A stretch of DNA of 64,000 bases from Thermoanaerobaculia bacterium (GTDB taxonomy: Bacteria > Acidobacteriota > Thermoanaerobaculia > Multivoradales > Multivoraceae): the NCBI GenBank assembly GCA_963666565.1, contig OY762911.1:4160001-4224000 (forward strand), written 5' to 3'. The notes beneath the pieces were generated by a model, which saw only the letters and a program-made list of their open reading frames with translations, made no database searches and was not told the origin of the DNA. A program made the position numbers and the translations under genes. This document shows positions 4,973 to 28,516 of the stretch, piece by piece (within the stretch, counting starts at the first letter, position 1; every line of letters begins with the position of its first letter).

Positions 4973-4979
4973 GGCGTAG

Positions 4980-4999: not shown

Positions 5000-5071
5000 A
5001 CCTAGCGCATCGCCTGCTCGAACGTCAATCCCGCCGGGAATCGCCAACGCGCCGGCGCATAGAGTCGGCAC

Positions 5072-10400: not shown

Positions 10401-10417
10401 CGCCGGCTGGAAGCGCC

Positions 10418-12088: not shown

Positions 12089-12144
12089 CTTCTCTCCGGC
12101 CGTAGCAAGCAAGGTGACGCCGGAGTACTTGGTGTTTGTCATCG

Positions 12145-12942
12145 TCACTCCGGCCGCAGCGAGTAGAGGTAGGCGACCAGGTCGTCGAGGTCCCGGCCGC
12201 GGAAGAAGCTGCTCAGCGGCGGCATCAGCGACTCCTCCGGCTTGTCGACCTCCGCGAGATCCGCTTTCTGGAAGGACCGCAGGTTCTCGAACTCGTCCAG
12301 GAGCTGGATCGAGTAGCGGTCCTCGTTGCGCAGCACGCCGCGCACGATGCCGCCCTCGCGGGTCCGCACCTCGACCGTCCTGTAGTCGGCGTCCATCGCG
12401 GCGGAAGGATCGGTGATCGAAGCGCGGATGTGGCCCGGCGCGCGCCGCCAGCCAAGATCGCTCAGATCGGGCCCGATGCGGCCGCCCGAGCCGTTCAGCC
12501 GGTGGCAGTCGGAGCAGGAGCCGCGGCTCATGTAGAGGTTCCGGCCCCGCCGCGGATCGCCGGGCAGGTCTTCCTCGCCGCCGGCGCGGCTGAGCGAGCG
12601 CAGGTACGACACGACCTGCCAGATCGACCTGTCCGGCTGGTAGATGCCGCCCATGCCCGTGTTCGGGATGCCGGTCAGGATGTTGCGGAACAGCGCCGCG
12701 TCGCTGCTGCCGTGGCGGAAGACGCCGCGGGTGAGGTCCGGCCCGTCGGCGCCCGTTCCGTCCGCGCCGTGGCAGAGCGAACAACTGCGGCGGAACACCT
12801 TGGCGCCGGCCTCGATGTCGGCTTCGGTCGTGTGCGGATTCTCCTGAACGCGTTCCTGGAGCGCCCTGGAGAGCACGTTCTGGGCGGCGACCGGATAGCC
12901 CCAAAGCGCGATCGCCGCCACAAGAACCGGCGCCCCGAACAT
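12145..12942 (-). CDS. Di-heme c-type cytochrome
   Basis: CSLCHG and CSDCHR motifs, GPDLT/GPDLS, SLMPP; adjacent to the PQQ gene; start uncertain (may extend to 13089). Confidence 0.88.
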   Translation of the reverse strand: MFGAPVLVAAIALWGYPVAAQNVLSRALQERVQENPHTTEADIEAGAKVFRRSCSLCHGADGTGADGPDLTRGVFRHGSSDAALFRNILTGIPNTGMGGIYQPDRSIWQVVSYLRSLSRAGGEEDLPGDPRRGRNLYMSRGSCSDCHRLNGSGGRIGPDLSDLGWRRAPGHIRASITDPSAAMDADYRTVEVRTREGGIVRGVLRNEDRYSIQLLDEFENLRSFQKADLAEVDKPEESLMPPLSSFFRGRDLDDLVAYLYSLRPE

Positions 12943-13263
12943 CGAGACCCGAAGACGGCGGTCAGGAGACCTCCGCCAACGACCGACCCCGAAACCCGTG
13001 GAGGGAGACTCCTCCCGACGTCGGCCGACCGGGCATCGGCGAGGCCCTGCTCCGGCGCTCCCGGAAGGCGTCGGTTCGACCGGTGACATGGCGGGAAGCG
13101 TAGCACCCGAACAGTGGGCGAAGGTCGAAACCCGAGGGGCGAGGAGGCGTATACTCGGATACCGTGCAAGCCGCATCGGACGCACCGACGCTCCAAGTCG
13201 TAGACGCATCCGGCATCCGCAAGGTTGCGTGACACCCCTCCATCCGACTCCGAAGGACACGAC

Positions 13264-14835
13264 ATGAACCGGATCCCCTTCCGCGCGCTCGCGGCAACGA
13301 CCGTCGCACTCGGACTGTTCGCCATGCCGGCGACGGGCCTCGCCCTGAACCTGGACCAGCCCACCTTCGTCGACGACATCGCGCCGATCCTCCACGAGAA
13401 CTGCGCGTCCTGCCATCGGCCGGACGAGATCGCGCCGATGTCGCTCCGCACCTACCGCGAAGTCCGGCCCTGGGCGCGTTCCATCGCCCGGGCGGTCGAG
13501 AACGGCGACATGCCGCCCTGGGACGCCGATCCCGGCTACGGCCCGTGGGCGAACGACATCTCCCTGAGCGACGACGAGATCGCCGCGATCACCCGCTGGG
13601 CCACGAACGGCGCGCCCCGCGGCGACGGCGACGAACCCGTCTACGAGTCGCCGGCAACCGGAGGCGACTGGGCGCTTGGCGAACCGGACTGGGTCTACGA
13701 GTTCGATCCCTTCGCGGTCGCCGCCGACGGGCCGGATCTGTTCGCGATCCTCCCGGTCGAGACCGGCTGGGAAGAGGACCGCTGGATCCGCGCCGTCGAG
13801 GTCCAGCCCGGCGACCGCGAGGTGCTCCACCACTTCATCCTCTGGCGGGCCGCTCCGGGCGGCGAGGTCCAGGACGCCTGGATCGACGCCTGGGCCGCCG
13901 GCATCGGCGCGACCGGATTCCCCGCCGGCACGGCGCGCCTGGTCCCCAAGGGCCAGGACCTGCTCGGCGACTTCCACTACCACCCGAACGGCACGGCCTC
14001 GACCGACAAGACCCGCATCGGCGTCTGGTTCGCGGAACCCGAAGAGGTCGAGAAGGAACTGATCAACCTCTGGGTCATGAACTCCACGTTCAAGATCCCC
14101 GCGGGCGACGCCAACCACGAGGCCCGCGCCCAGCACGTCTTCACGGACGACGTCGTGGTGCGCTCGCTCGGGCCGCACATGCACTACCGCGGCAAGGACA
14201 TGAGCTACACGGCCTTCCTGCCCGACGGCACGGAGCGCGAACTGCTGAGCGTCAGCCGCTACGACTTCAACTGGCAGACCTTCTACGAGTTCGCCGAACC
14301 CGTGGCGCTGCCGGCCGGCACCCGGGTCGAGGTCGTGGCGCACTGGGACAACTCCGCCGACAACCCGGCCAACCCCGACCCGACGATCGACGTCACCTGG
14401 GGCACCGAGTCGACGGACGAGATGCTGATCGGGTTCGTCGACTACGTGGCCGCCGAGGGCGTCAGCCCGAAGCCGGCCAGCCCGGTCATCTCGAAGCTGG
14501 CGGAACTGGCCCAGACGCACCCCGGCGAGGCATGGCGCTTCGACATCGAGCGCGAACCCGGCAAGGGACCGGAGCCGACCGCCATGCTCCTGCCGCGCAA
14601 CGGCGGGCAGGGCGGCTGGTTCGTCCAGTTCGGCACCCTCGTGCTGCCAGCGCCGATCGTCGACATCGTCTGGGACGGCGACCACGTGACCGCCACCGCG
14701 CAGACGCCCGGCAACACGATGCAGCTCAAGGGTTCCGTCCAGGCGGACGGCACGCTGCGGATGCACATGGGACCGGGCGAGGTCGTCGGCACGCCGGCCG
14801 GGAACGAGACGCCGTCGACGCTGCCGACCGGGTAG
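13264..14835 (+). CDS. Secreted cytochrome c fused to a copper type II monooxygenase-like domain
   Basis: Signal peptide, NCASCH, GDMPPW, VLHHF, PHMHYRGK, YDFNWQ, DEMLIG; GAAGGA RBS. Confidence 0.8.
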   Translation: MNRIPFRALAATTVALGLFAMPATGLALNLDQPTFVDDIAPILHENCASCHRPDEIAPMSLRTYREVRPWARSIARAVENGDMPPWDADPGYGPWANDISLSDDEIAAITRWATNGAPRGDGDEPVYESPATGGDWALGEPDWVYEFDPFAVAADGPDLFAILPVETGWEEDRWIRAVEVQPGDREVLHHFILWRAAPGGEVQDAWIDAWAAGIGATGFPAGTARLVPKGQDLLGDFHYHPNGTASTDKTRIGVWFAEPEEVEKELINLWVMNSTFKIPAGDANHEARAQHVFTDDVVVRSLGPHMHYRGKDMSYTAFLPDGTERELLSVSRYDFNWQTFYEFAEPVALPAGTRVEVVAHWDNSADNPANPDPTIDVTWGTESTDEMLIGFVDYVAAEGVSPKPASPVISKLAELAQTHPGEAWRFDIEREPGKGPEPTAMLLPRNGGQGGWFVQFGTLVLPAPIVDIVWDGDHVTATAQTPGNTMQLKGSVQADGTLRMHMGPGEVVGTPAGNETPSTLPTG

Positions 14836-14853
14836 CGGCGGTCCCGGTGGGGC

Positions 14854-14896
14854 CTGGGTGCGCGGGTCTTCCGACCCGCTGCCGCCGAAGGCGGCC
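14854..14896 (-). repeat. REP-like palindromic repeat, copy 1 of 9 (core GCGGGTC-GGAA-GACCCGC-GCACCCAG)
   Basis: ctgggtgcgcgggtcttccgacccgctgccgccgaaggcggcc. Confidence 0.85.
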
Positions 14897-14917
14897 GCAG
14901 TCGCTTCGCTGGCGCGC

Positions 14918-16024
14918 ATGAGACTGGCCGCGTACCGGCTGCGCCGGCGCTCTCGCCGGCTGGCGGTGGCGGCCGCGGACTCGTCGGCCTTGCAGAGGCT
15001 TCCCCGGCGACGGGCCGTCGAGGCGGCAGGAACCCTGGGGCTTGCCGCGCTTGCCGCGCTTGCCGCGCTGGGCTGCGGCGCCAACGCGCCGCCTCCGGCC
15101 GACGGCGACGGCGGCACTCCGCCGCCAGTGGCGGCGCCGGAGTTCACCGCGCCGATCGTCTTCCAGCGTTTCGAGAACACAGGTGCTACGCCGAAGATGC
15201 CCGGCTTCTACGGCGGCGCGGACATCTGGATCATGGAGGGCGACGGCAGCGGCGTACGCCTGGTACGAAAGGGCGTGCCGCAGCACCTGGACCACCCGTC
15301 CCTGACCTTCGATCTGCGGAGCGTCGTCTACGCCGAGTTCACCGACGCGGAAGCCGGCGTCGAAGCCGGGGCCCGGATCTTCCGCGAGGATCTGGCGACC
15401 GGCGAACGCGAAGTGCTGCGCGAAGTCGAGGGGTGCGCCGTCCATCACGCCAGCGTCTCCCCGATCACCCGCCAGCTCGTCTACGCCCGGAACTGCCCCG
15501 AAGGCGACGGCTTCAACCAGGGACTGATCGTCGAGATCGGCGCCCGCCGCCGGCTCGATGCGGCCCAGACCACCGCGCTCCGCGTCGGCAACGGCGTCGG
15601 CCTGCCACGCGCCGTGCTGTTCCAGGCCGAAGGCGAGCCCGTGGACGGCGAGCGGCGGATGGAGATCGCCATCATCCGCTTCGACGGCTACGGCCAGGGC
15701 ACCTACGCCGCCCTCACCGACCGCGACCACCGCCACCGCCGGCCCGCCGTCTCGCCCGACGGCCGAACCATCGCCTGGCAGACCAACCGCGAAGGCCCCG
15801 ACGACGACATCTTCCTGGCCGACATCGACGGCTCGAACCAGCGCCGTCTCACCGTGTCCGACGCCAACGACGGCCACCCCTGGTTCTCCCGCGACGGCCG
15901 CTGGATCGTCTTCGAGTCCGACCGCTCCGGTAACTGGGAGTTCTGGAAGATCGAGATCGAGACCGGTGAGGCGGTGCAGTTGACGGACGATCCGGCCTAC
16001 GTCAGTACGCGGCCTCGCTGGTAG
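14918..16024 (+). CDS. TolB-like/PD40 beta-propeller lipoprotein
   Basis: LAALGC lipobox-like sequence; PAVSPDGRTIAW, PWFSRDGRWIVFESDRSG; start uncertain. Confidence 0.85.
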   Translation: MRLAAYRLRRRSRRLAVAAADSSALQRLPRRRAVEAAGTLGLAALAALAALGCGANAPPPADGDGGTPPPVAAPEFTAPIVFQRFENTGATPKMPGFYGGADIWIMEGDGSGVRLVRKGVPQHLDHPSLTFDLRSVVYAEFTDAEAGVEAGARIFREDLATGEREVLREVEGCAVHHASVSPITRQLVYARNCPEGDGFNQGLIVEIGARRRLDAAQTTALRVGNGVGLPRAVLFQAEGEPVDGERRMEIAIIRFDGYGQGTYAALTDRDHRHRRPAVSPDGRTIAWQTNREGPDDDIFLADIDGSNQRRLTVSDANDGHPWFSRDGRWIVFESDRSGNWEFWKIEIETGEAVQLTDDPAYVSTRPRW

Positions 16025-16200
16025 GGCATTCCCTCTTGTAGTATCCCACCTGTGACGAAACGGACGAGCATCGTGACAACACCGGCGGCGCCCTCTACCC
16101 TCTCGTCGAAACGTGAGTGGCATGCACGCGATTCTGTTCCAGTCCTAAGCGTCGCGACGGTGTCGCTGCTGGCACCGCTCGTGCCGAGTCGGGGCGCTGC

Positions 16201-17451
16201 ATGAGGATCGACTACCGCGACCCGCAGCACGAGCGGTTGCCGCACATCGTCCGGTTCTCGGGTGGCCGCTCGTCGGCCGCGATGACCTTCCTGCTGGCAG
16301 ATGCCGGCGTCCTGCAACCGGAGCGCGGCGACGTCGTGCTCTTCGCGAACACGTCCGCCGAACACCCGGGCACCTACACCTTCGCCGCCGAGTGCAAACA
16401 CCGGGTCGAGCAGGAGTATGGGATTCCGTTTCTCTGGTATGAGTTCTGCACCGTCGAGGACGCTTGGCGGGGCTCTTACCGAAGGAAGCTCTCCTACCGT
16501 CTGGTAGACGCCGTACCGGTCCAACGGGATGCCCAGCGCGGCTACCGCTCGAACGGCGAGGTCTTTGAGGAGCTCCTGTCGTTCCAAGGAATGCTGCCGA
16601 CGCCGATGTCGCGCTCCTGCACGTCGAAGCTGAAGCTCTACCCGCAGCACCTGTTGCTGGCCGAGTGGTTGGGGCCTGGCGACGGTCCGGCACACGACGG
16701 CCACCATGCGGAGCGGCCCTTCATGACCGCAGACGCGGCGATGCGCCTCTACCGCAAGAACCGCGGGAGCGCGAGCGAGGACAGCTACCGAGAGCGCGTC
16801 GCCTGCATGATCGGAAAGCCGCCGGCGCGGCAGAAACAGCGCTGGAGCGACTTCACGTCTCCTTCGTCCGACAGATGGGCAGCTAGGGAGTGGGCGCGAA
16901 ACCGTCCGCGGCTCGTCGAGCTCTGGGGGCGCAAGGCCGCCCGCTTCGTGACCCTACTGGGGCTGCGCGCGGACGAGCCCAGTCGCGTACGGCGAGTCGT
17001 GTCGCGATCTTTCTACGCCGAGGATGCGCCCAGGCGCCACTGCTCGGTGCGCACCCAACCGCCAGGCGAACGACCCTACTTCCCGCTCTTCGACGCGGGC
17101 TTCGGCACTGAGGACGTTCACGAGTACTGGAACGGCCGGAACTTCGACCTGGCCTGTCCATCCCATGCCGGCAACTGCGTCTTCTGCTTCATGAAGGGAA
17201 CGGAGCAGTTGGCGCGAGCATCCCAGCTCGAGGACTCGCTGCGCCAAGAGGGACGACCTTCGGACATTCGGTGGTGGGCGGCGATGGAGCGGAAGTACCG
17301 CCGCGAGGCGCCGAAGCGAAACGGCGAAGGCGTTTCCCGATTCGGTTTCTTGGGCGTATCCGGCCCGACCTACGAACAACTGGCGGCGGGCGACCCCGGT
17401 CGGCGAACCCGCTTCTCCGGCGGCGAGCCCGCCTGCGACTGCACGGACTGA
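16201..17451 (+). CDS. PAPS-reductase/PP-loop family, Cys-rich protein (DndC-like fold)
   Basis: VRFSGGRSSAAM, FANTSAEHP, RSCTSKLK, LGLRADEPSRV, GNCVFCFMK, C-terminal CDCTD. Confidence 0.8.
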   Translation: MRIDYRDPQHERLPHIVRFSGGRSSAAMTFLLADAGVLQPERGDVVLFANTSAEHPGTYTFAAECKHRVEQEYGIPFLWYEFCTVEDAWRGSYRRKLSYRLVDAVPVQRDAQRGYRSNGEVFEELLSFQGMLPTPMSRSCTSKLKLYPQHLLLAEWLGPGDGPAHDGHHAERPFMTADAAMRLYRKNRGSASEDSYRERVACMIGKPPARQKQRWSDFTSPSSDRWAAREWARNRPRLVELWGRKAARFVTLLGLRADEPSRVRRVVSRSFYAEDAPRRHCSVRTQPPGERPYFPLFDAGFGTEDVHEYWNGRNFDLACPSHAGNCVFCFMKGTEQLARASQLEDSLRQEGRPSDIRWWAAMERKYRREAPKRNGEGVSRFGFLGVSGPTYEQLAAGDPGRRTRFSGGEPACDCTD

Positions 17452-19389
17452 ATGGCGGATCTGCACTTCCCACGCACCTGGAAGTCCGAAGGGCTCTCGG
17501 TCCAGTCGATGGCCCAGCACGACGGTTCCGCCGACCCCGTTGTCCGCGAGCTGCTTCAGAACTGCCTGGACGCCGCGCGCAAGGCGGGCCGGGCGACCCG
17601 CGAAAGCCCCCTGCGGGTGGCCTTCTCGATCAACGAGTGGCAGGTCGACGACTTACCGGGCATTGCAGCGTATCGGCGCGCATTCGAGGCGGCACGGAGA
17701 GAGGAACCCGCCGACCGGGCGACTCCGGCCGCAGCGGAGGCGATCAGACGCATCCAGAAGGCTCTGGACCAGGAATGGACGAGAGTGCTGTTCTGCGCCG
17801 ACAACGGCCACGGTCTGAATCGGGACCGGATGCGCGCGATCCTGTCGGAGGCACGCGGCGACAAGGGCGGTGACCGGCAGCTCGCAGGCTCCTATGGCCT
17901 CGGTCATCTGACCGCCTTCTCCGCCTCTGATCTTCGCTACGTCCTCTACGGCGGCCTGTCGAGCGAGGGCCTCTGCGTAAGCGGTCACGCGATCCTGGCC
18001 TCTCACTTCGATACGGCCGCCGGCCTCCACCGCGCCGGCGAGGGCTTTTGGACTGACGATCCCGAACCCGATCTGCATTCGTGCGACTTCCCGAACGAGG
18101 TCCCGCCGCTGCTGGAAGTCGAGATGGAAGAGATCGCGAGCGAGGACGCAGGTGGTGCCGGCACCGTTGTCTGCATTACCGGCTTCAACCACTTCCGGGA
18201 GCACGACGAACAAGCCGCAGTGAACGAGATCCTCCGCGTGGCGGCCACTAACTTCGTCGCAGCCATCGCCCGGGGGGAAATGGAGTTGGAGGTTCTGGCG
18301 GAGTCGAACGATCTCGAAGAGCGCCTCGACCGGAGGACATTGCAGGACCGCCTCAAAGCCCACTCGGGCCAGCAGCGCAGCCGCCGCGGTTCGGGGGGCG
18401 GCTGGCTTCCCGGCGCGCAGGCGTTCGCGGCTTGGCGGACGCTCCAACAGGGACGGAGGCTGGACGAAACAGAAGCAGGGGTGGAAGTGCTTCTGCGGCC
18501 AGTGACGGACCAGCCCAGTGCCCGCGGCCGAGTCAACGTGTTTCGAAACGGCATGTGGATCACGAACAGCGCGCCGGAGCTTCAGCCTGGCAGCTTTGTC
18601 GGCGCAAGACCCTTCGACGCGGTAGTCCTGCTCGAAGAAGGCGATCTGTTCGACCTCGTTCGCGCTTCGGAAGGGCCCGAACACCGAGGGATCGACCTGA
18701 AGCGGCTGAGCAAGGCTAGGCGCCGTGCTCTCGTTGCTGACTTGAACCAACTCGCGCAACGCCTGCGAATGGCAGCCGGGGAAGCAGCGGCCGCCGACCG
18801 GTTCCGGCCTCCGGGTTTCGCCGTGTTCGAGGGCAGCGACCTGAGAAGGGCTGAGCGGTTGCGCCCCCTGAGGCATCGGACGAGCGATGGACAGGAAAAA
18901 CCCAGCGCGCCTAGCCCCGGACCTGGGAAAGGCCCCCAACCGGTTCCCGGCGAACCGAACCCCAGAAACCTAAAGCCGGGCCGCGCCTTGTCCATGCGAG
19001 CAGCTTGCCGCCCGCTGCTGAACGGAGACGGGCTGGTGGACCGGGTCGCCGTCGACCTTGAGGTTCGCGACAGTCGTCTAACCCAGGCGTCTGAGCTTGG
19101 CTTCCGATTGCGACAGGACTCGGGCTCCGATGCGTCCTGCGAACAACCGTTCCCGCCGGTCTGGCTGGACCTGAGATCGATCGAGATCGTGGACGCCGCA
19201 ACGGCTGCCGGAGGCTCGAGGGCGCCCATCGGCCCGTCGAACGGAAGCGTCAAGGAACTTTCCCTGCCGGTCGGTGTCTCCCGGGTCATCGTCAGTCTCG
19301 GCGAACCGCTCGCCGACACCCGTGGCCTTCAGGTGGACCTTGTCCACAGGAAGGCGGAACGAGTGACCGCTCCCCAGGGGAAGCCATGA
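17452..19389 (+). CDS. GHKL (HATPase_c/MORC-like) ATPase
   Basis: RELLQNCLDA, ADNGHGL, GSYGLGH, GTVVCI; ATG immediately follows the upstream TGA. Confidence 0.8.
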   Translation: MADLHFPRTWKSEGLSVQSMAQHDGSADPVVRELLQNCLDAARKAGRATRESPLRVAFSINEWQVDDLPGIAAYRRAFEAARREEPADRATPAAAEAIRRIQKALDQEWTRVLFCADNGHGLNRDRMRAILSEARGDKGGDRQLAGSYGLGHLTAFSASDLRYVLYGGLSSEGLCVSGHAILASHFDTAAGLHRAGEGFWTDDPEPDLHSCDFPNEVPPLLEVEMEEIASEDAGGAGTVVCITGFNHFREHDEQAAVNEILRVAATNFVAAIARGEMELEVLAESNDLEERLDRRTLQDRLKAHSGQQRSRRGSGGGWLPGAQAFAAWRTLQQGRRLDETEAGVEVLLRPVTDQPSARGRVNVFRNGMWITNSAPELQPGSFVGARPFDAVVLLEEGDLFDLVRASEGPEHRGIDLKRLSKARRRALVADLNQLAQRLRMAAGEAAAADRFRPPGFAVFEGSDLRRAERLRPLRHRTSDGQEKPSAPSPGPGKGPQPVPGEPNPRNLKPGRALSMRAACRPLLNGDGLVDRVAVDLEVRDSRLTQASELGFRLRQDSGSDASCEQPFPPVWLDLRSIEIVDAATAAGGSRAPIGPSNGSVKELSLPVGVSRVIVSLGEPLADTRGLQVDLVHRKAERVTAPQGKP

Positions 19390-20156
19390 TCCCCGTGCTG
19401 CGCCAGGACGGTTCGAGTCTGGACTGGAAGTCCGCCACGTACCATGTGGACGTAGAGGCGAACGGCACTGGTGCGGTCGTCACTCACGAACTGAGAGACG
19501 CACCGGAGTTGGTCAGGCTGATCGAAGACGGTGCCGCCGCCTATGCCGTGGAAGCGCGCTGCCCTAGGACGCTCTTCGCCCGAACGTGGCTGAGCCGCAA
19601 GCAGCGGCTGGAAGTGGACTGGCGCGAGACCGACGTGGACGGCCAAGTCTTCCTGTTCCCCGGCGTAGTGGCCCTGAAGGAGACGTCCTTGGCGACCGCC
19701 GGCCTTATCGAACTATGGGAAGAAGATCAGGTCCGCGTGCCATTGGGCGCATGGCTCGCACGCGGCGCCGAGTTCGCCGCCAAGAATCTCGCCGCGTCGC
19801 TGATCGAGTTTCGCAAGGACGAGTCGCTTCAGTCGGGACGAATGAGGGTGGTCGAGGACACTAGCGGCGACGATGCCCGTTTCCTGGTCAAGCTCGCCCC
19901 AGAGTTGTACCAACGCGCAACGCAAGGGGACCGGGATGTCCAGGTGGCCGGGCTAATCGCCGCGTTCGCCAAGCTGCCGGACTCTCCACGCTTCGCTGAG
20001 GACTCGGCTAGTCCGGTCGCACGGATGCTCCGGGATCGGCTCGAGAGCGCGGAAGTTCCGACTTGGGACGACGGTTACGACTGGGATCCGGCTTGGGCCG
20101 CGACCACGATCGAGAAGTTCTACCCGGCGACCGCCGAAGACGAGACAGCGCCTTGA
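19386..20156 (+). CDS. Hypothetical protein (256 aa) in the modification operon
   Basis: ATGA overlap; globular, beta-rich N-half (AYAVEARCPRTLFAR). Confidence 0.75.
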   Translation: MIPVLRQDGSSLDWKSATYHVDVEANGTGAVVTHELRDAPELVRLIEDGAAAYAVEARCPRTLFARTWLSRKQRLEVDWRETDVDGQVFLFPGVVALKETSLATAGLIELWEEDQVRVPLGAWLARGAEFAAKNLAASLIEFRKDESLQSGRMRVVEDTSGDDARFLVKLAPELYQRATQGDRDVQVAGLIAAFAKLPDSPRFAEDSASPVARMLRDRLESAEVPTWDDGYDWDPAWAATTIEKFYPATAEDETAP

Positions 20157-21142
20157 CACTGGAAACGAACGGTTTCCCTGCCGGCGAGGCAAAGTCGGCA
20201 TCCAGTCTCGCCGACGAGAGTCTTCGGGACCGCTACGGCCAGTGGGTGGCGGAGCTGATCTGGGTTGCGCGGGCCGAACGGCACCGGAACGATGCCGAAC
20301 GGGAACGCCGGCATCGCCATGTAACCCAGCGCCAACGCGAACTGCGCCGAGCGATCGGGGACGGGCCGAACACGGCCGCTGCGTGGCTTCGAACACAACT
20401 AGGGCTGGAGGAATCGGGAGCGCTCCTGATCGAAGCGCCGCAGCTGCCCCGGCCACTGACGGCCGACGAGTTCATCGAGCCGCCGTTCGAACTGGAGCTA
20501 GAGATCGGTCAAGCGCTTTCGGCCGAGATCACTACGCGAGACGCCGCCCGTCCCTGGTTCTGGCTGCTCTGCCACATCGCGTGGCTCGAACGGGGCGACA
20601 TCGCAGACAACGTTCGAAGGGCCTTCTGCTGGAGCAGCGCCGCCGCCGGCAAGTCGGACGAAACCGACCAGTTGGAGGCGGAAACCCGCAACTTCCTGCG
20701 CCGTACCGGCGGAATCGAGATGGTCCGAGGCAAGGTATCCGTACTCAGCGACTGTCCGCTCGCCCGGGCTTGGTGGCGTTACCGTCTTGCCCACAACGCG
20801 GCTCACACTGCAGGTGACGGAAAGGTCCTGAACGCCGCGGATGCCCACCGGTGCCTCCATCACAGCGGCCCGATCTGGGAGGAACTCGTTCGCCTGGGAG
20901 TGAAACGCCTGACCGTCGTCAACCACGACCGGGCCCGCGCCGCCGTTGTCGCGGCACTCGCCCAGGTCGTCTCAAGGGCAGCGCCCGATGGCAAGATCGA
21001 GTGGGGGACCCAGCACATTGCGCGAGCGGCCAAGGAACTCGGGCGGGAAGCGCTTGTCCGGTCGTTAGGACAAATCGAGTGGTCCGAGCTGTGCGGCATC
21101 GTGGAGAACGCGACCCCGGGGCCCGAGGGAGCCGCGTCTTGA
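20153..21142 (+). CDS. Hypothetical protein (329 aa), possibly DUF6339-like
   Basis: TTGA overlap; DAARPWFWLLCH and CPLARAWWRY motifs; family assignment is from memory only. Confidence 0.7.
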   Translation: MTLETNGFPAGEAKSASSLADESLRDRYGQWVAELIWVARAERHRNDAERERRHRHVTQRQRELRRAIGDGPNTAAAWLRTQLGLEESGALLIEAPQLPRPLTADEFIEPPFELELEIGQALSAEITTRDAARPWFWLLCHIAWLERGDIADNVRRAFCWSSAAAGKSDETDQLEAETRNFLRRTGGIEMVRGKVSVLSDCPLARAWWRYRLAHNAAHTAGDGKVLNAADAHRCLHHSGPIWEELVRLGVKRLTVVNHDRARAAVVAALAQVVSRAAPDGKIEWGTQHIARAAKELGREALVRSLGQIEWSELCGIVENATPGPEGAAS

Positions 21143-23241
21143 CCACCGCCCTCACTCTCCCGTCCTCACCGCCAACCCCCGGCAACCCTTGGGGCGTCGC
21201 CCGCACACCGCTCGTGCCCGGTGCCTATCGGCGCCGATACGGTGACAGCACGGCAGCTCGCGACCTGCGGAACGCGGTCGCCAATCCGAACCTGACGCTC
21301 CACGACTTGGGCGCGCGCTTCTGGGACAAAGCGCCTTGGTCGACCGTGCCTCGGAGGGCTTTCAAGAGCCTCCGCCTCCAGCTCGCGCGATTCCGGGTAC
21401 CCTCGGACGTCGAAGTGCTGGTCGCGGGTACGCGCACCGAGCACCTGTTGGCTCTGCCTCTCGGTACCCGCGCCCACAACTTCATCAGGATCGCCGGGCA
21501 GGAGGAAGCGGTCGAAGGTCGACTGCGGCGGACCCTAACGGCTGGCGACGTGCTGGCGTATCGGAATGCGGGCGTCATGGTACTGCTCGAACTGCTCGCG
21601 GTCGTCGAAGGTCATCGATTAGCGCAACGGCCGGCCTCGGAAGCGGGCGTTGACCGGCCAGCCGCTGAACAGAGCGAGCCATCGGACGACAGCGCAATCC
21701 TCTTGCCAAAGAGATTGATAGACCTGCTGGCGGTCGCTCGCGAGTTCCGCAGCGCCACAACTCTGAAGGAAGCGCTCGAACTCGATGGCAGCTCTCTTGC
21801 CGAGCGAACCGGCCTCGCGGCTGAACTGGACGCAGTGAGCCTCGACGACCTAGGGATCGGCGAGGGCATGACTCACGCAGCCGGTCTGCTCGCGGAGACC
21901 GAGGCCTTGGATTCGGAACTGACCCAGCATGAGGAGACGATCCTCCAACGTCGGCTCTTCCGCCGGCGGCCGGCCACACTTGCGGCGCTCGGCAAGCTAC
22001 AGGGGATCACAAGAGAGCGTGTCCGCCAGATCGAGTCCAAGCTGAAGAGGCGACTCGAGAGCCGCCTCGGGCGACGCGTCGGAATCGTAGCCGGTGCAGT
22101 AGCAGAACGGATCGCACCGATCTCCCGGCCCGAGGAGATCGACCGACAGATCGGAGCAGTCTTCGAAGGCCGAGATCATCCTTCGGTCCCACTCGCTTGC
22201 CGGATGCTCCGCAGCCGGCTGGGCTACCGCGCCAAAGGCGAACTGGAACTGAACGAGGACGCCTCCAAGGCAGTGACCGAGCTTCGCAGCTTCGCTCGCG
22301 AGCAGCAGGACGACGCCGGTCTGCTTGACGAGGACACGCTTCAGTCCCGGCTGGCTGACCTGTCCTGGGCGGAACACTGGGAACTGCTTGTCGAGACTTG
22401 CGGCTTTCACCGGATCGACGGCCTCCTGGGACTCCGCAACACGAAGAAGGCGCGGGTCAAGGCCGCCGTCCTGAACATCGGCCGGATCGCTTCCAGGGAA
22501 GAGATCGCGGCCAGATGCGGCCTCTCCCGGCAACGCACCGTCAGTTACCTCTCGGCACTGCCGTCTGTCGCTCGGGCAGATCGAACGCGTTGGGGCCTCA
22601 CCGAGTGGATCGACGATGTGTACGAAGGCGTCGCGAACGAGATCCTGCAGCGGATCGACGAGGACGGCGGCGCTACCCGTGTCGAACGCGTGCTCGACGA
22701 ACTGCCGCGACTGTTCGGCGCGACCGAGGCGACGGTCCGAGCGTACCTAGCAGCACCGCAGTTCGAGGTTCGGAGCGGCTGGGTTCGCCGGGCCGACCCA
22801 TCGGCAGTGCGACTCCGCCCGCTCGACGACGCGATCGACGGGCGGGACGAGCTCGGAAGGCCGTGCTGGAGCTTTCAAGTGAAGGCGGACTACTTCAAGG
22901 GTTACAGCTTGGCGGGCCTGCCGCCGGAGATCGCCCGTGAGCTGGGTTGCCCTCCGAACGGACGCACTGAAGTACGCCTTGTCGAGCCGTCGGACTGCCG
23001 CCCATTGAGCCTGACCTGGCGGCTCACTTCGTTGACGGGTCCCAATCTCGGCTACTTGTCCACGCCGCTGGAGCGCCTGGGAGCCAAGGCTGGCGACCGC
23101 GTGCAGCTCATCCTGCGCGGCAACGGCTCGGTCGAACTCCGCCGGAACGGTCGACGGGTGTCGCCTAGCGATCCAGGCGCCCCGCCCAAGCCTGCCGAGG
23201 AAATTCTCGAACGCCTCAAGCAAAGGCGCCAAGTGCTGTAG
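21139..23241 (+). CDS. Multi-domain DNA-binding protein: RNAP alpha-CTD-like, sigma-70 region 4 HTH and winged HTH
   Basis: LPLGTRAHNF...TAGDVLAYRNAG; TLAALGKLQGITRERVRQIE; ARADRTRWGLTEW; TTGA overlap. Confidence 0.78.
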   Translation: MTTALTLPSSPPTPGNPWGVARTPLVPGAYRRRYGDSTAARDLRNAVANPNLTLHDLGARFWDKAPWSTVPRRAFKSLRLQLARFRVPSDVEVLVAGTRTEHLLALPLGTRAHNFIRIAGQEEAVEGRLRRTLTAGDVLAYRNAGVMVLLELLAVVEGHRLAQRPASEAGVDRPAAEQSEPSDDSAILLPKRLIDLLAVAREFRSATTLKEALELDGSSLAERTGLAAELDAVSLDDLGIGEGMTHAAGLLAETEALDSELTQHEETILQRRLFRRRPATLAALGKLQGITRERVRQIESKLKRRLESRLGRRVGIVAGAVAERIAPISRPEEIDRQIGAVFEGRDHPSVPLACRMLRSRLGYRAKGELELNEDASKAVTELRSFAREQQDDAGLLDEDTLQSRLADLSWAEHWELLVETCGFHRIDGLLGLRNTKKARVKAAVLNIGRIASREEIAARCGLSRQRTVSYLSALPSVARADRTRWGLTEWIDDVYEGVANEILQRIDEDGGATRVERVLDELPRLFGATEATVRAYLAAPQFEVRSGWVRRADPSAVRLRPLDDAIDGRDELGRPCWSFQVKADYFKGYSLAGLPPEIARELGCPPNGRTEVRLVEPSDCRPLSLTWRLTSLTGPNLGYLSTPLERLGAKAGDRVQLILRGNGSVELRRNGRRVSPSDPGAPPKPAEEILERLKQRRQVL

Positions 23242-23259: not shown

Positions 23260-25521
23260 GTGCTTGCTGACGAAGCGACGCTCGAACCGCGGCTTTATCG
23301 CCTGCCCGACGATCCTGTGGCGGATCGCGTGTTGATCCCCGGATTCCGTTCGGCGACATCGGTTCGGGGCGCGTTCGGTTGGTTCGGCGCCGGCTGGATT
23401 CGCCAACTTGCGCCGGGGCTTGCCCACTACCTGAACCGAGAAAGCCCGCAGCCGATCGAATTCACCGTGGCCCCCCTTCACTACGAACCGGAACTGGCAG
23501 CGATGAGAGCAGCCCAGACAATGTCGGCGAAACAGGCGACGGAGCGAGTGGCGCACCTATTCGTCAACGGTCGCGTCGACCGGTCCGCACTGGGCCGCCA
23601 CGCTCTGGACTGCTTGGCTTGGATGCTCACCTGTGACCTCCTCCGCCTGCAGGTCGCGGTGCCGGAATCCGATTCGAACTTCCACCCCAAGATGTGGCTC
23701 TTCTCCGACGGGGACGGTCGAGTGCTGGCCCGCGGCTCAGGCAACGCCACGGGTATGGGTGTTGCGTCAGGTATCGAGCAGATGGACGTTGACGTCTCCT
23801 GGATCAAGGAGAGCCGCCAGCGCGTGTTGCAGGGCGAGCGCATCCTTTGCGACTGGTCCAGCGCGCGTGGGGCCGGTATCGTGGAAGTGGTCCCTCTTCC
23901 AGAGGCGCTAAAGCGGAAGATCATCCGTGTGGCGCCGTCATCGGCACCAAGCCCCGACGACTACCTAGTGGCGGCCGCCGAAGACGGAAGCCCGCGGTGG
24001 GCGGTGGACGCCTGGCAACAACTGGACGCCCGCCTCCGCAGCGTTCGTGGCCGCGGATCGGCGCCCCGACTCGAGATTCCGGCGTGGCTCGAATGGGAGA
24101 CTGGCCACTACGGCCACCAGAAGGAAGCCGTGGATGCCTGGGAGGCAGAGCCGGAACCCGAACGCGGCACGCTCGCCATGGCGACGGGAGCGGGCAAGAC
24201 GTTGACGGCCCTGATCTGCGCTGCCCGGGCGCAGGACCGGCTGCCCGGCGGCTCGGCCTTCGCCGTGGTCGTCGCGGCGCCCTCCCGGCCCCTCCTGCTG
24301 CAGTGGAAGGAAGAGGTGTCGAAGTTCGGCGTCGCCGCAGAAACGCCAACCTTCTCTTCCGACACGGCCGCCTCCCTGACTAACTTCCTGCGCGGGCTGG
24401 ACGGTGATGGCACCCGGGTTGCGGTTGTGACCAACAACCTGCTCTGCACGTCGTCGTTCCAACGAACACTCGAATCGGGACTGCGCGGACGACCGTCGCT
24501 GCTGATCGCCGACGAAGCGCATCGGCTTGGCGCGGAAGGGTTCATCCGCCAGACGCCAAACTTCTTTGAACGGCGCTTGGCCCTTTCCGCCACACCGGTA
24601 CGCCAGTACGACCCGGATGGGACCGAACGGATCTTCGAGTTCTTCGGCCCACCCGTCTACGAGTTTGGTCTGGACCGGGCTATAGGCTTCTGTCTGGTCC
24701 CGTACGACTACCATGTTCACGCCGCAACACTGGACGAAGAGGAGACGGACGAGTTCACGCAACTGACCCGCAAGATCGGCGCGGCAATGGCCGGTGCCGA
24801 GGATCGAAAACCGAGCGACCGCGAACGAGAAGCCCTGAACGGGTTGCTGCTGAAGCGCCGGCGAATCATCGAGGCGGCGGAGGCGAAGATCCCGCTGCTC
24901 CAGGCCGTGCTGGAGCGCCGCGGACCGCGAAGGATCGAGCAGGCGCTGGTCTACGCATCCGCCAAGAAGCGGGACCAGTTCGAACGCATCGGCCAGGTAC
25001 TAACGCAACTCGGGATTCGCTGGGCACCGGTTACGCAAGAGGAGACAGCCCAACGGTCGAAGCTCGAAGGAACGTTGGAGGCGTTCCGCACGGGCGGCCT
25101 CCAAGTGCTCCTGGCGAAGAAGGTTCTCGACGAAGGCGTCGACATTCCGTCGATCCGCGAGGCGTACATCGTCGCCTCATCCACGGTCGAACGCGAGTGG
25201 GTGCAGCGCCGCGGTCGAGTGCTTCGCCGCCATCCCGGAAAGGAGTGTGCGGTCGTGCACGACTTCCTCGCCCTGCCGGTGGCGAGCACCGTCCGAGGGG
25301 GCGACCAACCGCTCAAACGGCTGGTACGGAGGGAACTGGAGCGAGCGCTCGCCTTCGCCGGATACGCTCGAAACGCCGCCGGCTCCGCAGGTGCGCTCGC
25401 CTGGATTGAGCGAATCCGCGAGACGTTCTGGCCAAGTCGGCGCCAGCGCTACGACCAACTCGCCGAAACGCCAAGCTACCAGAGAATCGCGCCAACGCTC
25501 GAGGGGAGAGACGCGAGATGA
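23260..25521 (+). CDS. PLD(HKD)-nuclease plus SF2 DEAH helicase (similar to dnd-associated restriction helicases)
   Basis: FHPKMWLFSD...GSGNAT; HQKEAV, ATGAGKT, DEAH, LSATP, LDEGVDIP, QRRGRVLR. Confidence 0.9.
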   Translation: MLADEATLEPRLYRLPDDPVADRVLIPGFRSATSVRGAFGWFGAGWIRQLAPGLAHYLNRESPQPIEFTVAPLHYEPELAAMRAAQTMSAKQATERVAHLFVNGRVDRSALGRHALDCLAWMLTCDLLRLQVAVPESDSNFHPKMWLFSDGDGRVLARGSGNATGMGVASGIEQMDVDVSWIKESRQRVLQGERILCDWSSARGAGIVEVVPLPEALKRKIIRVAPSSAPSPDDYLVAAAEDGSPRWAVDAWQQLDARLRSVRGRGSAPRLEIPAWLEWETGHYGHQKEAVDAWEAEPEPERGTLAMATGAGKTLTALICAARAQDRLPGGSAFAVVVAAPSRPLLLQWKEEVSKFGVAAETPTFSSDTAASLTNFLRGLDGDGTRVAVVTNNLLCTSSFQRTLESGLRGRPSLLIADEAHRLGAEGFIRQTPNFFERRLALSATPVRQYDPDGTERIFEFFGPPVYEFGLDRAIGFCLVPYDYHVHAATLDEEETDEFTQLTRKIGAAMAGAEDRKPSDREREALNGLLLKRRRIIEAAEAKIPLLQAVLERRGPRRIEQALVYASAKKRDQFERIGQVLTQLGIRWAPVTQEETAQRSKLEGTLEAFRTGGLQVLLAKKVLDEGVDIPSIREAYIVASSTVEREWVQRRGRVLRRHPGKECAVVHDFLALPVASTVRGGDQPLKRLVRRELERALAFAGYARNAAGSAGALAWIERIRETFWPSRRQRYDQLAETPSYQRIAPTLEGRDAR

Positions 25522-25751
25522 ACAATATCGACCGAGTGGCCGCGGAGATCCGCCAGCGCGCCGCACAGGAGTCGGTTGACGGACTGAGTGCGGACGAACT
25601 GGTCACCTTCCTGCTGGAAGTCGTGAACGTCGAGGATCTCCACCTTCGGCGTCCCCGGAACGTGCAGAAGGAGGTCGACACCATGGTGCGCGCATTGGCC
25701 CGGCGATTGGCCCCAAAGAACCCAACTCCGACCGGAGACAGCGGATGCTGA
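25518..25751 (+). CDS. Small helical protein (77 aa) between the helicase and the ATPase
   Basis: ATGA overlap upstream and 7-nt overlap downstream; same position as small partners of DndD/CxC-type ATPases. Confidence 0.7.
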   Translation: MNNIDRVAAEIRQRAAQESVDGLSADELVTFLLEVVNVEDLHLRRPRNVQKEVDTMVRALARRLAPKNPTPTGDSGC

Positions 25752-27994
25752 AGTTCAAGCGCATCGAGATCCGCAACTTTGCCGTCTTCGAGCACCTGGA
25801 GGTCGAGCCGTCGACGGATCCTGAGGGCCCGCTTACGGTTGTCCGTGCCGAGAATGGCTCCGGCAAGACGACCTTCCTGCGAGCCCTCCTCTGGGGTATG
25901 TATGGGGAGAAGGGACTGCCCGGAGCGAATCCCGGGCGCTACTCCGTCCATCCGGCATGGTGGCGCCCTGACGAGCAAGGAGTCCAGACGACGGTAACGA
26001 TCGAGTTCGAGACCGATGGCTCCGACCGACACGATCCCGCCGCCGGTACCAAGATGGACGCCTACCTGCTAAGTCGATCAGTGACGACAGTGAGGCGCGA
26101 TGCTGCCCGCGACGACGAGCCTGACTTCGAGCGCCGGGAAGAAATGCCCTCGCTCATGAAGCGAGTAGATTCGGGCGCTTGGGAACCGGCCAACGTAGGT
26201 GTGGACGCGGCCGTCCAACAGTTACTTCCCTGGGACCTCCGCGACTTCTTTGTCATGGACGCCGATCAGGCGGCGGACTTCGTGGGCGGTACCGAGAACC
26301 GTCAGATCAGCGTCCACGAGGTCGAGAAGAAGACAACGGACGCCGTTCGAAGTCTGCTCGGCATCGACGTCTTTGAGGCGGCGGCGAACCGCCTGCGGAA
26401 GGCATCAAGGAACTTCGGGAGCGAGGCGACGAAGACCGTCAAGGATCACGAACTCCACCAACTCCAGGCGGAGCAGAATCGCCTGGAAGATCGAGTGGAA
26501 CAGATCAAGGGCGATCTGGACAAAGCACGGGAGGACGCTCGCGACCTGAAGGGCAGGCTGGATGACCGCAGCCAGCGACTCAAGGAGGAACTCCTCCACC
26601 AAGGAGCGTACGAACCCCTGGTCAAACTCAGGGACGAAGCACGGAAGAAGCAGGAGACATCCCGCAACGCCCGTCGTGAAGCGGCCGCCGGTTTGGCGGC
26701 CGGGTTGGCGGACGCCTCACTCTTCGCACCGTTGGCGTCGCCGGCTCTCCTCCGCGTTGAGGGAGCCCTCAAGCCTCTCCATGACGCCGGCAGGATTCCG
26801 CTGAAGCACGTCAGCTTCGTTCGACAACTGCTTGAGCGCGGCGAATGCGTCTGCGGGCGACGCTTGGACACCGACACGGAAACGCGTAGCCGGGTCGAAG
26901 GGGAACTCGCACGTTCCGCCGAACGTGAAGAAGAGGCGGAGTACCTAGGGCGGCTCTATGAAGCGGCCGCTCACCATCGGGCGGCAAAGACGGGAGCCGG
27001 CTGGAGCGCACGCAAGAAGCGGCTCTCTGCCGAGATCGCGCGGGCCAACTCTTCGGCCAACGAAGCCAGCCTGGAGCTTCGGGACACGGAGCGGAAGCTC
27101 GACGGGATCGATCAGGAGAAGGTCCGGGTACTTCGCGCCGAAGAAGCGGCGCTCACGACCCAGTTGGAAAAGAAGCAGCAAACGGTCGGCAGTCTCAACC
27201 TTCAGCTTGAGACGATGTCGAAGTCGCTCTCCGGCGTAAGCAAGCGCCTCGTGGCCGCCCAGCGCAGGCATTCCGCAGCCGCCGACAGCACCGCCGCACG
27301 GGACCTGGCGAGCCTGGGAGCCAGAATTCTTGACGACTCGGTCGCGGAGCTAAGGAAGCGACAGGTGAAGGACCTCTCCGATCGAATGAAGCGCTTGTTC
27401 GACCAGATGGCCGCGAACGTCACGGACGCCGATTTCGACGGCGCCGAGGAAGGACGCGAATCAGTCCGCATGATCGCACGGGTCGGCATCCGCCCAGTCG
27501 AGGACAGCCTAGATCGCTTCGAGATCTTCGCCCTGAACCACCGCGACCGGGTCATGCCGCCGACCGAGATCAACGGCGCCTCTCGCAGGGTGCTCGCCGT
27601 GTCCTTCGTTCTCGCTCTCTGCCAGGAGTCCCGTACACATGCGCCGCTCATCGCCGACTCCCTGTTGAACTCCATGTCCGGAGCGGTACGACGCAACACC
27701 CTGAACGCTACGGTGGAGAACTCCGAGCAGCCGATCCTGCTGCTGACTGGGTCGGACCTGGAGGGAGAAACAGAGGTCGCAACGGTCCGCCGCTTCGGGG
27801 GTGCCGTCTACACGCTTACCGGGCAGTGGGACGCAGTCGCAGCCGGGCGGGGAGGCGATGTCGTCCGACAGACTTCAAGCAATGCCAATGTCGCCGTGCT
27901 GTGCAAGTGCGGGCCGCGCCAGTTCTGTGATGTCTGCGAGCGTCAGGGGCAGCGCGAAGCCGCAGGCTGGTCCGAACGCGCAGCGACCGACTAG
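25745..27994 (+). CDS. DndD/Rad50/SMC-like coiled-coil ABC ATPase with CxC zinc hook
   Basis: IEIRNFAVF, AENGSGKTT, FFVMDAD, coiled coils, ECVCG, PLIADS, C-terminal CKC..FCDVC. Confidence 0.87.
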   Translation: MLKFKRIEIRNFAVFEHLEVEPSTDPEGPLTVVRAENGSGKTTFLRALLWGMYGEKGLPGANPGRYSVHPAWWRPDEQGVQTTVTIEFETDGSDRHDPAAGTKMDAYLLSRSVTTVRRDAARDDEPDFERREEMPSLMKRVDSGAWEPANVGVDAAVQQLLPWDLRDFFVMDADQAADFVGGTENRQISVHEVEKKTTDAVRSLLGIDVFEAAANRLRKASRNFGSEATKTVKDHELHQLQAEQNRLEDRVEQIKGDLDKAREDARDLKGRLDDRSQRLKEELLHQGAYEPLVKLRDEARKKQETSRNARREAAAGLAAGLADASLFAPLASPALLRVEGALKPLHDAGRIPLKHVSFVRQLLERGECVCGRRLDTDTETRSRVEGELARSAEREEEAEYLGRLYEAAAHHRAAKTGAGWSARKKRLSAEIARANSSANEASLELRDTERKLDGIDQEKVRVLRAEEAALTTQLEKKQQTVGSLNLQLETMSKSLSGVSKRLVAAQRRHSAAADSTAARDLASLGARILDDSVAELRKRQVKDLSDRMKRLFDQMAANVTDADFDGAEEGRESVRMIARVGIRPVEDSLDRFEIFALNHRDRVMPPTEINGASRRVLAVSFVLALCQESRTHAPLIADSLLNSMSGAVRRNTLNATVENSEQPILLLTGSDLEGETEVATVRRFGGAVYTLTGQWDAVAAGRGGDVVRQTSSNANVAVLCKCGPRQFCDVCERQGQREAAGWSERAATD

Positions 27995-28012: not shown

Positions 28013-28516
28013 ATGAACTACTTCGAGAGCAGACTGCGAGCACAGGCCCACACACTCGCGCTGCCCAAAGATCTGCGCGACGACGTGGACCGCTATGTCC
28101 AGAGTCATCGACCCGGCGCGGATCCTGAGCAGGCACCGTTCCCGCGACGTCTCGATCTCTGGGCCTACGGGATCTTCGCGGCTCTGGCACTGGGACTCGA
28201 ACCGGAGGACCAGTCCAAGACAAGGCGAACCACCTACAAGTTCAAGGACACGGCATCCGTGAACATGTCGTCCGAACTCTGCGAACTGCTTGCTGTCGTG
28301 GCCGCGGCCGGCCTAGGACCCGAGAACGAACGGGTCACCGAACCAGCGGAGATCATCCGATACGCCAACTGCTTGGCCGCTGTCGGTTGCCCGGTCGTGA
28401 TCGGCGAACTCAACAAGGTGGACCTTCGGCTGACTCCGCTGGAGAAGATGGTCCGCCACGCGGAGACGCTACTTGAGAGGACTCAGGAGCACCTGAGAGC
28501 GGCGATACCAACGTAG
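28013..28516 (+). CDS. Dnd-associated/DndE-like small protein
   Basis: LPKDLRDDV...APFPRRLDLWAYGIFAAL...YANCLAAVG recalls dnd-associated protein 4; last gene of the operon; GGAGGAG RBS. Confidence 0.6.
   Translation: MNYFESRLRAQAHTLALPKDLRDDVDRYVQSHRPGADPEQAPFPRRLDLWAYGIFAALALGLEPEDQSKTRRTTYKFKDTASVNMSSELCELLAVVAAAGLGPENERVTEPAEIIRYANCLAAVGCPVVIGELNKVDLRLTPLEKMVRHAETLLERTQEHLRAAIPT

Follow-up and report, generated by a model that had tools for sequence, protein, structure and literature searches.

To our knowledge, only three enzyme families, DndC, SspD and BrxP, put sulfur into DNA, and all three write phosphorothioate (PT). Published accounts describe each of them as a maker of PT DNA (PMC10853773, PMC12839542). 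In the same accounts, DndC carries a 4Fe–4S cluster held by three cysteines together with a sulfur-accepting cysteine dyad, its companion DndA is often replaced by IscS (PMC10853773), and BrxP is a PT writer that substitutes for the methylase of BREX (PMC12839542; PMC12914056). Here we analyse PPL, a PP-loop enzyme resembling phosphoadenosine phosphosulfate (PAPS) reductases, which is encoded in a 64,000-nucleotide stretch of contig OY762911.1 from a Thermoanaerobaculia bacterium (the whole stretch is referred to as the window). PPL heads a cassette comprising a GHKL ATPase, an M33B-like protein and a protein named here c2, and fills the slot occupied by a C5 cytosine methylase in canonical PDC-M33, a candidate system of the PADLOC collection. 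The reading that we favour, with a probability of roughly 0.55, is that PPL is a swappable DNA self-marking enzyme of a PDC-M33-type cassette and that it performs sulfur chemistry.

The PPL family

The longest open reading frame (ORF) form of the PPL gene spans 16117–17451 and opens with a GTG codon; the in-frame ATG at 16201 was taken as the start because the resulting length of 416 residues is that of nearly all homologues. The motifs singled out by the initial annotation in ORF 16201–17451 (SGGRSS, RSCTSKLK, GNCVFC and a terminal CDC; Table 1) are all present and conserved in an alignment of 71 relatives with identities down to 28%. Three of the ten cysteines (residues 65, 83, 140, 202, 281, 319, 326, 329, 412 and 414), namely C140, C326 and C329, are invariant in 71/71 rows, and at least 90% of the rows retain S20, G21, G22, R23, S25, C412 and C414; as judged from the alignment, this conservation is not due to chance. 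The three invariant cysteines align in hhalign with cysteines of SspD and are positioned as in the 4Fe–4S-binding SspD, DndC and adenosine phosphosulfate reductase, and PPL may likewise bind an Fe–S cluster.

PPL has a PAPS-reductase-like fold of the PP-loop (adenine nucleotide alpha hydrolase) superfamily, with a Rossmann-like core, an N-terminal PP-loop and matches to solved members, among which GMP synthetase (Z 9.6), TilS (9.2 and 8.9) and QueC (7.5) lie at similar Z. An AlphaFold 2 model built from 18 close homologues reached a predicted local distance difference test score (pLDDT) of 57 and was discarded; a Foldseek search against the PDB returned no match at E ≤ 0.001, and a PPL profile found nothing meaningful among PDB sequences (best E 0.29).

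None of the family models consulted claims the protein as its own. Pfam PAPS_reduct (PF01507) gives 16.9 bits (E 0.0065), below its gathering score of 22.5 bits, and nothing in NCBIfam matches at E ≤ 0.01, hence not TIGR03183 (DndC, cut-off 290.4 bits). The PADLOC SspD model (PDLC02782) gives 29.4 bits, with its best stretch at residues 150–188, and BrxP is matched at 8.8e-4. The genome of the window, a single 4.79-Mb contig that is 97% complete, encodes an SspD proper at C1:1687551-1688366 (445.6 bits with the PADLOC SspD model) and, elsewhere, a CysH-like protein (162.7 bits with PF01507); a search of the whole genome with the DndC model TIGR03183 found nothing. This CysH ends in KECGLHVLQPR, in keeping with the ECGLH-type tail bearing the catalytic cysteine that we take to be a hallmark of CysH, whereas PPL ends in CDCTD. 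The annotation had attributed SGGKDS to DndC and CysH alike, which holds for DndC (8/8 sequences) but not for the CysH of this genome, where SFQAEG stands at the site of the PP-loop motif.

Comparison of profiles brings PPL closest to phage proteins annotated as members of the PAPS reductase family (hhalign Prob 100, E 2.3e-43 over 248 columns, with a phage profile of two sequences), followed by SspD (Prob 99.2, E 1.4e-19, 184 columns) and DndC (Prob 84.5, E 6.9e-6, 150 columns, N-terminal only), in agreement with the view of the initial annotation that it resembles phage or prophage enzymes more than DndC. In a quick maximum-likelihood tree with Shimodaira–Hasegawa-like approximate likelihood ratio (SH-aLRT) support, which resolves only the shallower nodes and has an unreliable root on a single CysH, DndC (99) and SspD (100) form separate long-branch clades; PPL nests in neither, nor with CysH, which is not the placement that the annotation named as a refutation. 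Placed by these sequence comparisons, PPL is neither DndC, SspD nor CysH. A housekeeping role in sulfate assimilation was rejected, since a normal CysH lies elsewhere in the genome and PPL sits in a low-GC island with defence genes.

The nearest kin are thus phage and plasmid proteins of the 'phosphoadenosine phosphosulfate reductase family', some labelled 'NinC-like', whose carriers include Roseobacter phage CRP-821, Escherichia phage ArgO145, phage C72C1, Microcystis phage Mae-JY30 and Vibrio phage vB_VpP_BT-1011. They share with PPL the motifs SGGR(T/S)S, NT..EHP, FCT..K, GIRADE and GNC..CF.K and a cysteine-bearing C-terminal tail; the fifth PP-loop position is Ser or Thr in PPL and the phage clade, against the Asp of SGGxDS. 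The phage forms are shorter (~270–290 residues), lacking a β-hairpin insert (~residues 84–110) and a helical insert (~157–248) of PPL, and are solitary genes of early or replication regions without GHKL–M33B–c2. In phage C72C1 the homologue adjoins a DNA methylase gene. A tblastn search with PPL hit 113 phage and 79 plasmid records, none spanning 80% of the query, and the closest viral structural neighbours are PAPS-reductase-like proteins of Vibrio phages (E 4.7e-9 and 1.5e-5). A short gene of the phage type also lies between thyA and folA (3120–5295 of locus L197) on plasmid pANAM02 of Bosea sp., a sponge isolate, a setting that hints at a possible nucleotide-level role for some of the short forms.

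One protein library holds 1002 PPL matches at E ≤ 1e-3, the best 120 of which show 54–91% identity and are all unnamed, and a profile search of 1.84 billion representatives gave 1593 matches. On these sequence searches, PPL belongs to a large, well-conserved and unnamed family that would be the fourth beside DndC, SspD and BrxP. No publication on it was found in the literature on PAPS reductases, PP-loop enzymes and phage DNA modification, as far as covered by article text other than supplementary tables.

A cassette with an exchangeable first gene

A pattern search of species-representative genomes gave 162 matches, 104 of which encode a PPL relative, and 80 loci, all from metagenome-assembled genomes (MAGs), were kept. 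PPL, GHKL, M33B and c2, mapped with hidden Markov models, are colinear on one strand in 71/80; among the remaining nine, a contig end cuts L037, L049, L076 and L079, L067 carries an insertion, and L026, L057, L065 and L080 are true exceptions. M33B follows GHKL in 74/80. The loci span six phyla (Thermoanaerobaculia, Bryobacterales, Dehalococcoidia, Acidimicrobiales, Longimicrobiales, Opitutales and Gammaproteobacteria are represented); the Acidimicrobiales carriers include Candidatus Poriferisodalis and Hopanoidivorans cymbastelae, and several locus names point to sponges. GHKL, M33B and c2 are the conserved partners of PPL. In the window, the GHKL ATG immediately follows the PPL stop codon, and all junctions from PPL through the sigma-factor-like gene downstream of c2 are of the stop-then-ATG type or 4-nt overlaps.

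The initial annotation had treated GHKL, helicase and ATPase genes as one operon type and had asked for the linkage of PPL to its downstream genes in other genomes. That linkage is upheld for GHKL–M33B–c2 and fails for the helicase and ATPase, which accompany PPL as PbeA/PbeC in only 6/80 loci, all Thermoanaerobaculia. By their sequences these two genes are part of a separate, known system, CxC-ABC/PbeABCD. In the window the PPL cassette and the Pbe module form one operon, and one might regard PPL as a substitute for DndC that modifies DNA for the Pbe module, the GHKL genes being an unrelated insertion. The tight packing of all the window genes in that operon would fit, as would the pairing of CxC/Pbe systems with DndC or cytosine methylases reported in PMC10853773; set against the 71 loci with GHKL–M33B–c2, however, the 6 loci with PbeA/PbeC make this extremely improbable.

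The GHKL protein matches a sacsin-like ATP-binding domain (9e-7), its profile finds HSP90 (0.0036) and then MutL and MORC in the PDB, and E33, N37, D40, D117, G119, G121, G146, G149 and G151 are invariant. M33B has no match in the PDB or Pfam, and c2, which was defined by tblastn using c2 from 10 loci, has none in Pfam or PADLOC, M33C and DUF6339 included. To one DUF6339 protein c2 bears a faint likeness (hhalign Prob 30%, E 5.5e-4), and an AR.WW motif is common to the two. Profiles of M33B and c2 found nothing in the PDB below E 0.36, and the ESM Atlas gave no usable match for c2 and only unnamed clusters for M33B.

Paralogues of the GHKL gene were sought in the PPL-carrying genomes, in the genome of the window and in 401 evenly sampled genomes of the phylum to which the gammaproteobacterial MAG belongs, four of which contain a match; in an even 401-genome sample of Actinomycetota, the GHKL profile found the seed genome only, in a stricter first look whose count is a floor. 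In the homologous operons examined, the first position, which the annotation had advised listing, holds PPL, a C5 methylase, an N4/N6 methylase or no modifier. As the annotation also stated, homologous GHKL cassettes begin with a C5 methyltransferase, in the order C5 methylase–GHKL–M33B–M33C(DUF6339), in L101, L110, L198 and L200, and for this reason the first position is considered swappable. PPL comes first in L112 (38% G+C) and L199, whereas an N4/N6 methylase and a restriction-endonuclease-like gene precede GHKL–M33B–c2 in L104. The C5 methylase is the final gene in L113, a C5-methylase-like gene is convergent in L111, and c2-type triads stand without an adjacent modifier in L102, L103 and immediately ahead of PPL in L036. 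In the loci analysed, triads with DUF6339 occur with C5 methylases, and triads with c2 occur with PPL. The canonical PDC-M33 cassette L198 lies in the genome of the window itself, outside the window (C1 about 3295800-3301700, ~3.296-3.302 Mb), so that this organism has both the methylase-headed and the PPL-headed form.

A 2.3-Mb Acidimicrobiales MAG (G303; L015 and L101–L104) has five GHKL paralogues: PPL, a C5 methylase and an N4/N6 methylase head one each, and the other two lack an adjacent modifier. Those two triads might depend on the only PPL of the genome, acting in trans. A Dehalococcoidia MAG (G305) carries two GHKL genes, distantly PDC-M33A-like, ~1.7 kb apart at 8084–13811 of L105, with no recognisable M33B or c2 adjoining them.

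DNA, sulfur and a proposed mechanism

In four relatives (P0167, P0191, P0174 and P0277) a full PPL domain is joined to a C5 DNA methylase, and the methylase part of P0167 retains the PCQ, ENV and QxRxR catalytic motifs. These fusions to an intact C5 DNA methylase lend weight to the role on DNA proposed in the initial annotation. A metagenome scan with the fusion alignment kept 80 loci, of which only L114 and L115 reach into the PPL part, the others being ordinary C5 methylases; the fused gene of L114 lies among ParB-like, DUF2857, topoisomerase III and DUF3577 genes, a setting like that of an integrative and conjugative element (ICE).

That PPL modifies DNA appears probable. The alternative, in which its substrate is a nucleotide or a partner protein and the C5 methylases that share its position are just neighbours, has an example in a solved entry of a QueC-like PP-loop enzyme complexed with the CdnD cyclase. 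The predicted binding of PPL to c2 (see below) would suit a protein target, and the phage-type gene between thyA and folA hints at nucleotide metabolism. The fusions to intact methylases, the alternation of PPL with DNA methylases at the same position in at least five loci, and the location of phage homologues within early or replication regions, with a DNA methylase adjoining in C72C1, all speak against it and leave it very unlikely.

Evidence on sulfur comes from two cassettes, L043 of Longimicrobiales (Gemmatimonadota) and L199 of Candidatus Aldehydirespirator (Actinomycetota), in which PPL and GHKL are separated by a co-directional class-V aminotransferase (Aminotran_5) gene. The encoded proteins (271 and 249 bits) contain a GAAC catalytic loop and, by sequence, resemble cysteine desulfurases; the PPLs of the two cassettes share 52% identity and belong to one sub-branch. 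This arrangement is in line with the sulfur chemistry that the annotation had put forward. The PPL cassette of the window contains no desulfurase gene, which makes a supply of sulfur in trans plausible, and the genome holds 11 Aminotran_5 matches, all outside the window. In L043, two PPL cassettes stand in tandem (2890–17465), the first with the in-operon desulfurase and the second with a further two c2-like ORFs, 305 and 463 residues long, behind it. The genome of the window also holds, outside the window (L204, C1:1680000-1699000), an Ssp-type locus encoding a 286-residue SspD, an Aminotran_5 desulfurase and a 1235-residue AAA_16 ATPase. At its flanks are a GmrSD_N protein and a trio of SF2 helicase, HATPase_c_3 (GHKL) and PLD genes, and the locus looks like a second sulfur-modification defence island.

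A mark that contains sulfur is, by a narrow balance, the likelier product. The chemistry could instead be sulfur-free, with PP-loop activation, subsequent attack by an amine or other nucleophile, and the cysteines in a structural role, binding Zn or a structural Fe–S cluster. Amidating enzymes do figure among the PP-loop folds matched at similar Z (GMP synthetase, TilS and QueC), fusion to a C5 methylase points to the base rather than the backbone, and 78/80 loci have no desulfurase next to PPL. The in-operon desulfurases of L043 and L199 speak against such chemistry, as does the fact that the nearest characterized enzymes by profile, SspD and DndC, insert sulfur; the pattern of three cysteines plus a cysteine dyad also fits DndC as it has been described. 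We consider a sulfur-free mark quite unlikely.

The predicted complex of PPL and c2 scored 0.75 (runs of 0.80, 0.75 and 0.01), with 0.00 for the best of three controls. In a benchmark whose calibration holds only roughly here, the alignments being custom-built, 58/80 solved complexes and 2/110 mismatched pairs reached this score. Contacts agree between runs to at least 72%, with a partner pLDDT of at least 83, and the predicted interface of PPL (residues 87–93, 164–174, 185–188, 236–238 and 278–279) falls mostly in two inserts that are gapped in the phage and SspD forms. The model supports binding of PPL to c2.

Docking of this kind would also fit a reading in which PPL modifies DNA and GHKL–M33B–c2 is not a restriction module but an ATP-driven scanning or targeting apparatus like DndD–DndE or SspB–SspC, with restriction left to variable neighbours such as GmrSD/SspE-like, HNH or PbeA nucleases. 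The triad has no recognised nuclease domain, nuclease genes do occur within 10 kb (a GmrSD_N/HEC-05 protein in 13 loci, HNH_2 in 9, PbeA in 5), a CxC/Pbe nuclease module that looks complete follows the cassette in the window with translational coupling, and ATPase–DndE cores are argued in PMC10853773 to recruit alternative modifiers. The canonical PDC-M33 triad, however, is paired with an ordinary C5 methylase, a class needing no targeting machine, no such nuclease holds a fixed place in most of the 80 loci, and triads without an adjacent modifier occur. A pure targeting role is considered unlikely.

Several observations weigh against PPL as a sulfur-inserting marker in a restriction cassette. 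PPL does not have the Asp of SGGxDS, present in 8/8 DndC and 4/4 SspD sequences fetched, so that ATP pyrophosphatase activity is not assured. Desulfurase genes occur in only two PPL cassettes, and any desulfurase-like ORF in the stored flanks of only 3/80 loci, one of them 8 kb away. With no nuclease domain recognised in GHKL, M33B or c2, restriction by the triad is an assumption. One of the three PPL–c2 runs scored 0.01, c2-type triads exist that have no adjacent modifier (those of L102, L103 and the upstream triad of L036), and no GHKL gene lies near the L114 fusion, which implies that the PPL inserts do not serve c2 only. We know of no biochemistry for any member of the PPL family or of the phage clade.

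If PPL nonetheless marks DNA with sulfur, a cysteine desulfurase, housekeeping in the organism of the window and cassette-encoded in some relatives, would place a persulfide on the C-terminal CxC. The PP-loop site would activate the target position in DNA, and cluster-bound sulfur would take the place of oxygen, giving a phosphorothioate or a thiolated base. PPL would dock on c2 through the two inserts absent from the short phage forms, and c2, the GHKL ATPase and M33B would recognise the mark and act on DNA that lacks it. In the window, the cassette is translationally coupled to the sigma-factor-like protein and to an apparently complete CxC/PbeABCD module, which possibly shares the mark.

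Genomic surroundings and comparison with known systems

The window has a G+C content of ~70%, falling to 60–67% in the stretch from ~16 to 34 kb that contains the genes of Table 1.

Table 1. Coordinates of PPL, its motifs, the cassette and the downstream module in the window
Feature	Position (nt)	Strand	Length or PPL residues (aa)	Basis or remark
PPL, PP-loop/PAPS-reductase-like enzyme	16201..17451	+	416	ATG start at 16201
SGGRSS, PP-loop of PPL	16258-16275		20-25	
NTSAEHP, PPL motif	16348-16368		50-56	
RSCTSKLK, PPL Cys motif	16612-16635		138-145	
GLRADE, PPL motif	16960-16977		254-259	
GNCVFCFMKG, PPL motif	17170-17199		324-333	
CDCTD, C-terminal tail of PPL	17434-17448		412-416	Final residues ahead of stop
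GHKL (Bergerat-fold) ATPase, distant PDC-M33A	17452..19389	+	645	PADLOC PDC-M33A 8.3e-19
M33B-like protein	19386..20156	+	256	PADLOC PDC-M33B 1.3e-6; ATGA overlap with GHKL stop
c2, at PDC-M33C/DUF6339 position	20153..21142	+	329 (~310 in relatives)	TTGA overlap with M33B stop
Sigma-70 region-4 helix-turn-helix (HTH) protein	21139..23241	+	700	Pfam Sigma70_r4 3.7e-7; TTGA overlap with c2 stop
PbeA-like HKD(PLD) nuclease–SF2 helicase fusion	23260..25521	+	753	PADLOC PbeA 8.8e-150; Pfam ResIII, DEAD, Helicase_C
Small ORF at PbeB ('small protein') position	25518..25751	+	77	Position only, after PMC10853773
PbeC/CxC-clade DndD-like ABC ATPase	25745..27994	+	749	PADLOC PbeC 1.6e-44
ORF at PbeD/DndE position	28013..28516	+	167	Kept after PbeC in L001, L004, L005, L007

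The sigma-HTH protein has a weak MzaA-like match (5.8e-5), and its gene is limited to the closest relatives, with tblastn matches in L001, L002, L003, L005 and L007. The PbeA-like protein reaches 325 bits (6.7e-97) with TIGR04095, under the cut-off of 600 bits. The 77-residue ORF overlaps the PbeA stop and the PbeC start; PbeC shows an ECVCG motif in its coiled-coil region and matches DndD TIGR03185 at 3.9e-27, below the cut-off; the 167-residue ORF has no match in Pfam or PADLOC. The right part of the low-GC island (28549–29339, 29616–30968, 31014–31553 and 32464–33723) comprises two small ORFs without a model match, an ISL3-family transposase, an SDH-type ClpP-like protease and a 179-residue fragment whose match to Type ISP enzymes is confined to their C-terminal specificity domain. 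At 60290–64000 (+ strand) an uninterrupted frame of more than 1237 codons extends past the end of the window, with unusual G+C by codon position (first 0.49, third 0.85) and a local G+C down to 0.64–0.66.

The PPL cassette offers a clear genetic test bed, with four genes and an enzyme that replaces a methylase. If its mark is sulfur-based, DNA thiolation would extend to more chemistry and more restriction partners than described, the common but unexplained 'PAPS reductase' genes found in lambdoid, marine and cyanobacterial phages would gain a function, and part of the dense defence repertoire of sponge symbionts would be explained; if it is not, a new DNA modification would be at hand. A bolder reading, tentative and as a whole unlikely, is that PPL–GHKL–M33B–c2 adds to Dnd, Ssp and BREX type 4 a fourth system of DNA sulfur modification and restriction, so far undescribed, with a mark other than Rp-phosphorothioate, either a thiolated base or, in the methylase-fused forms, a 5-methyl/thio-cytosine. 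In that scenario c2 would recruit PPL as the writer, the GHKL-driven complex would read the mark, and one PPL might serve several paralogous triads in trans; the system would have spread horizontally through sponge-associated bacteria of at least six phyla, and phages and ICEs would carry a stripped-down PPL as an anti-restriction device.

Among described GHKL proteins, the prokaryotic MORC/paraMORC ATPases are encoded beside DNA methylases, mostly for cytosine, in defence-type operons of restriction and modification (Iyer, Abhiman and Aravind 2008, PMC2292703), and in this they resemble the GHKL proteins described here; that paper makes no mention of PAPS, PP-loop or phosphorothio. The GHKL of the cassette differs from them in having no MORC model match and in finding its best matches in the sacsin-like domain and HSP90. 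SspFGH, considered as a GHKL-containing analogue, was dropped, its paper containing no HATPase, helicase or GHKL. No publication naming 'PDC-M33' or 'DUF6339' was found in the library searched. Canonical PDC-M33 (M33A GHKL, M33B and M33C/DUF6339) and the PPL cassette are alike in gene order and sizes, and differ in that the former combines a C5 methylase with DUF6339 and the latter PPL with c2.

Of the sulfur-inserting enzymes, SspD of SspABCD shares with PPL the fold class and an alignable PP-loop, CT..LK cysteine and CxxC, and its desulfurase SspA is optional, as is the desulfurase for PPL. SspD differs in its SGG(K/R)DS motif and in its partners, SspB and SspC, models of which matched none of the cassette proteins in the window. 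DndC of DndABCDE is likewise a PP-loop enzyme with an optional cysteine desulfurase, DndA, but carries SGGKDS in all eight sequences fetched where PPL has SGGRSS, and goes with DndD and DndE, whereas a DndD-like CxC ATPase is found near PPL in only the 6/80 loci mentioned above. BrxP of BREX type 4 is comparable in being a PAPS-reductase-like enzyme in place of the methyltransferase of a defence system, and differs by its fusion to DUF4007 and by working with BrxC, PglZ and BrxL. Beside these, the PPL cassette appears as a variant among the DNA sulfur-modification defence systems, with a real chance that the mark itself is new.

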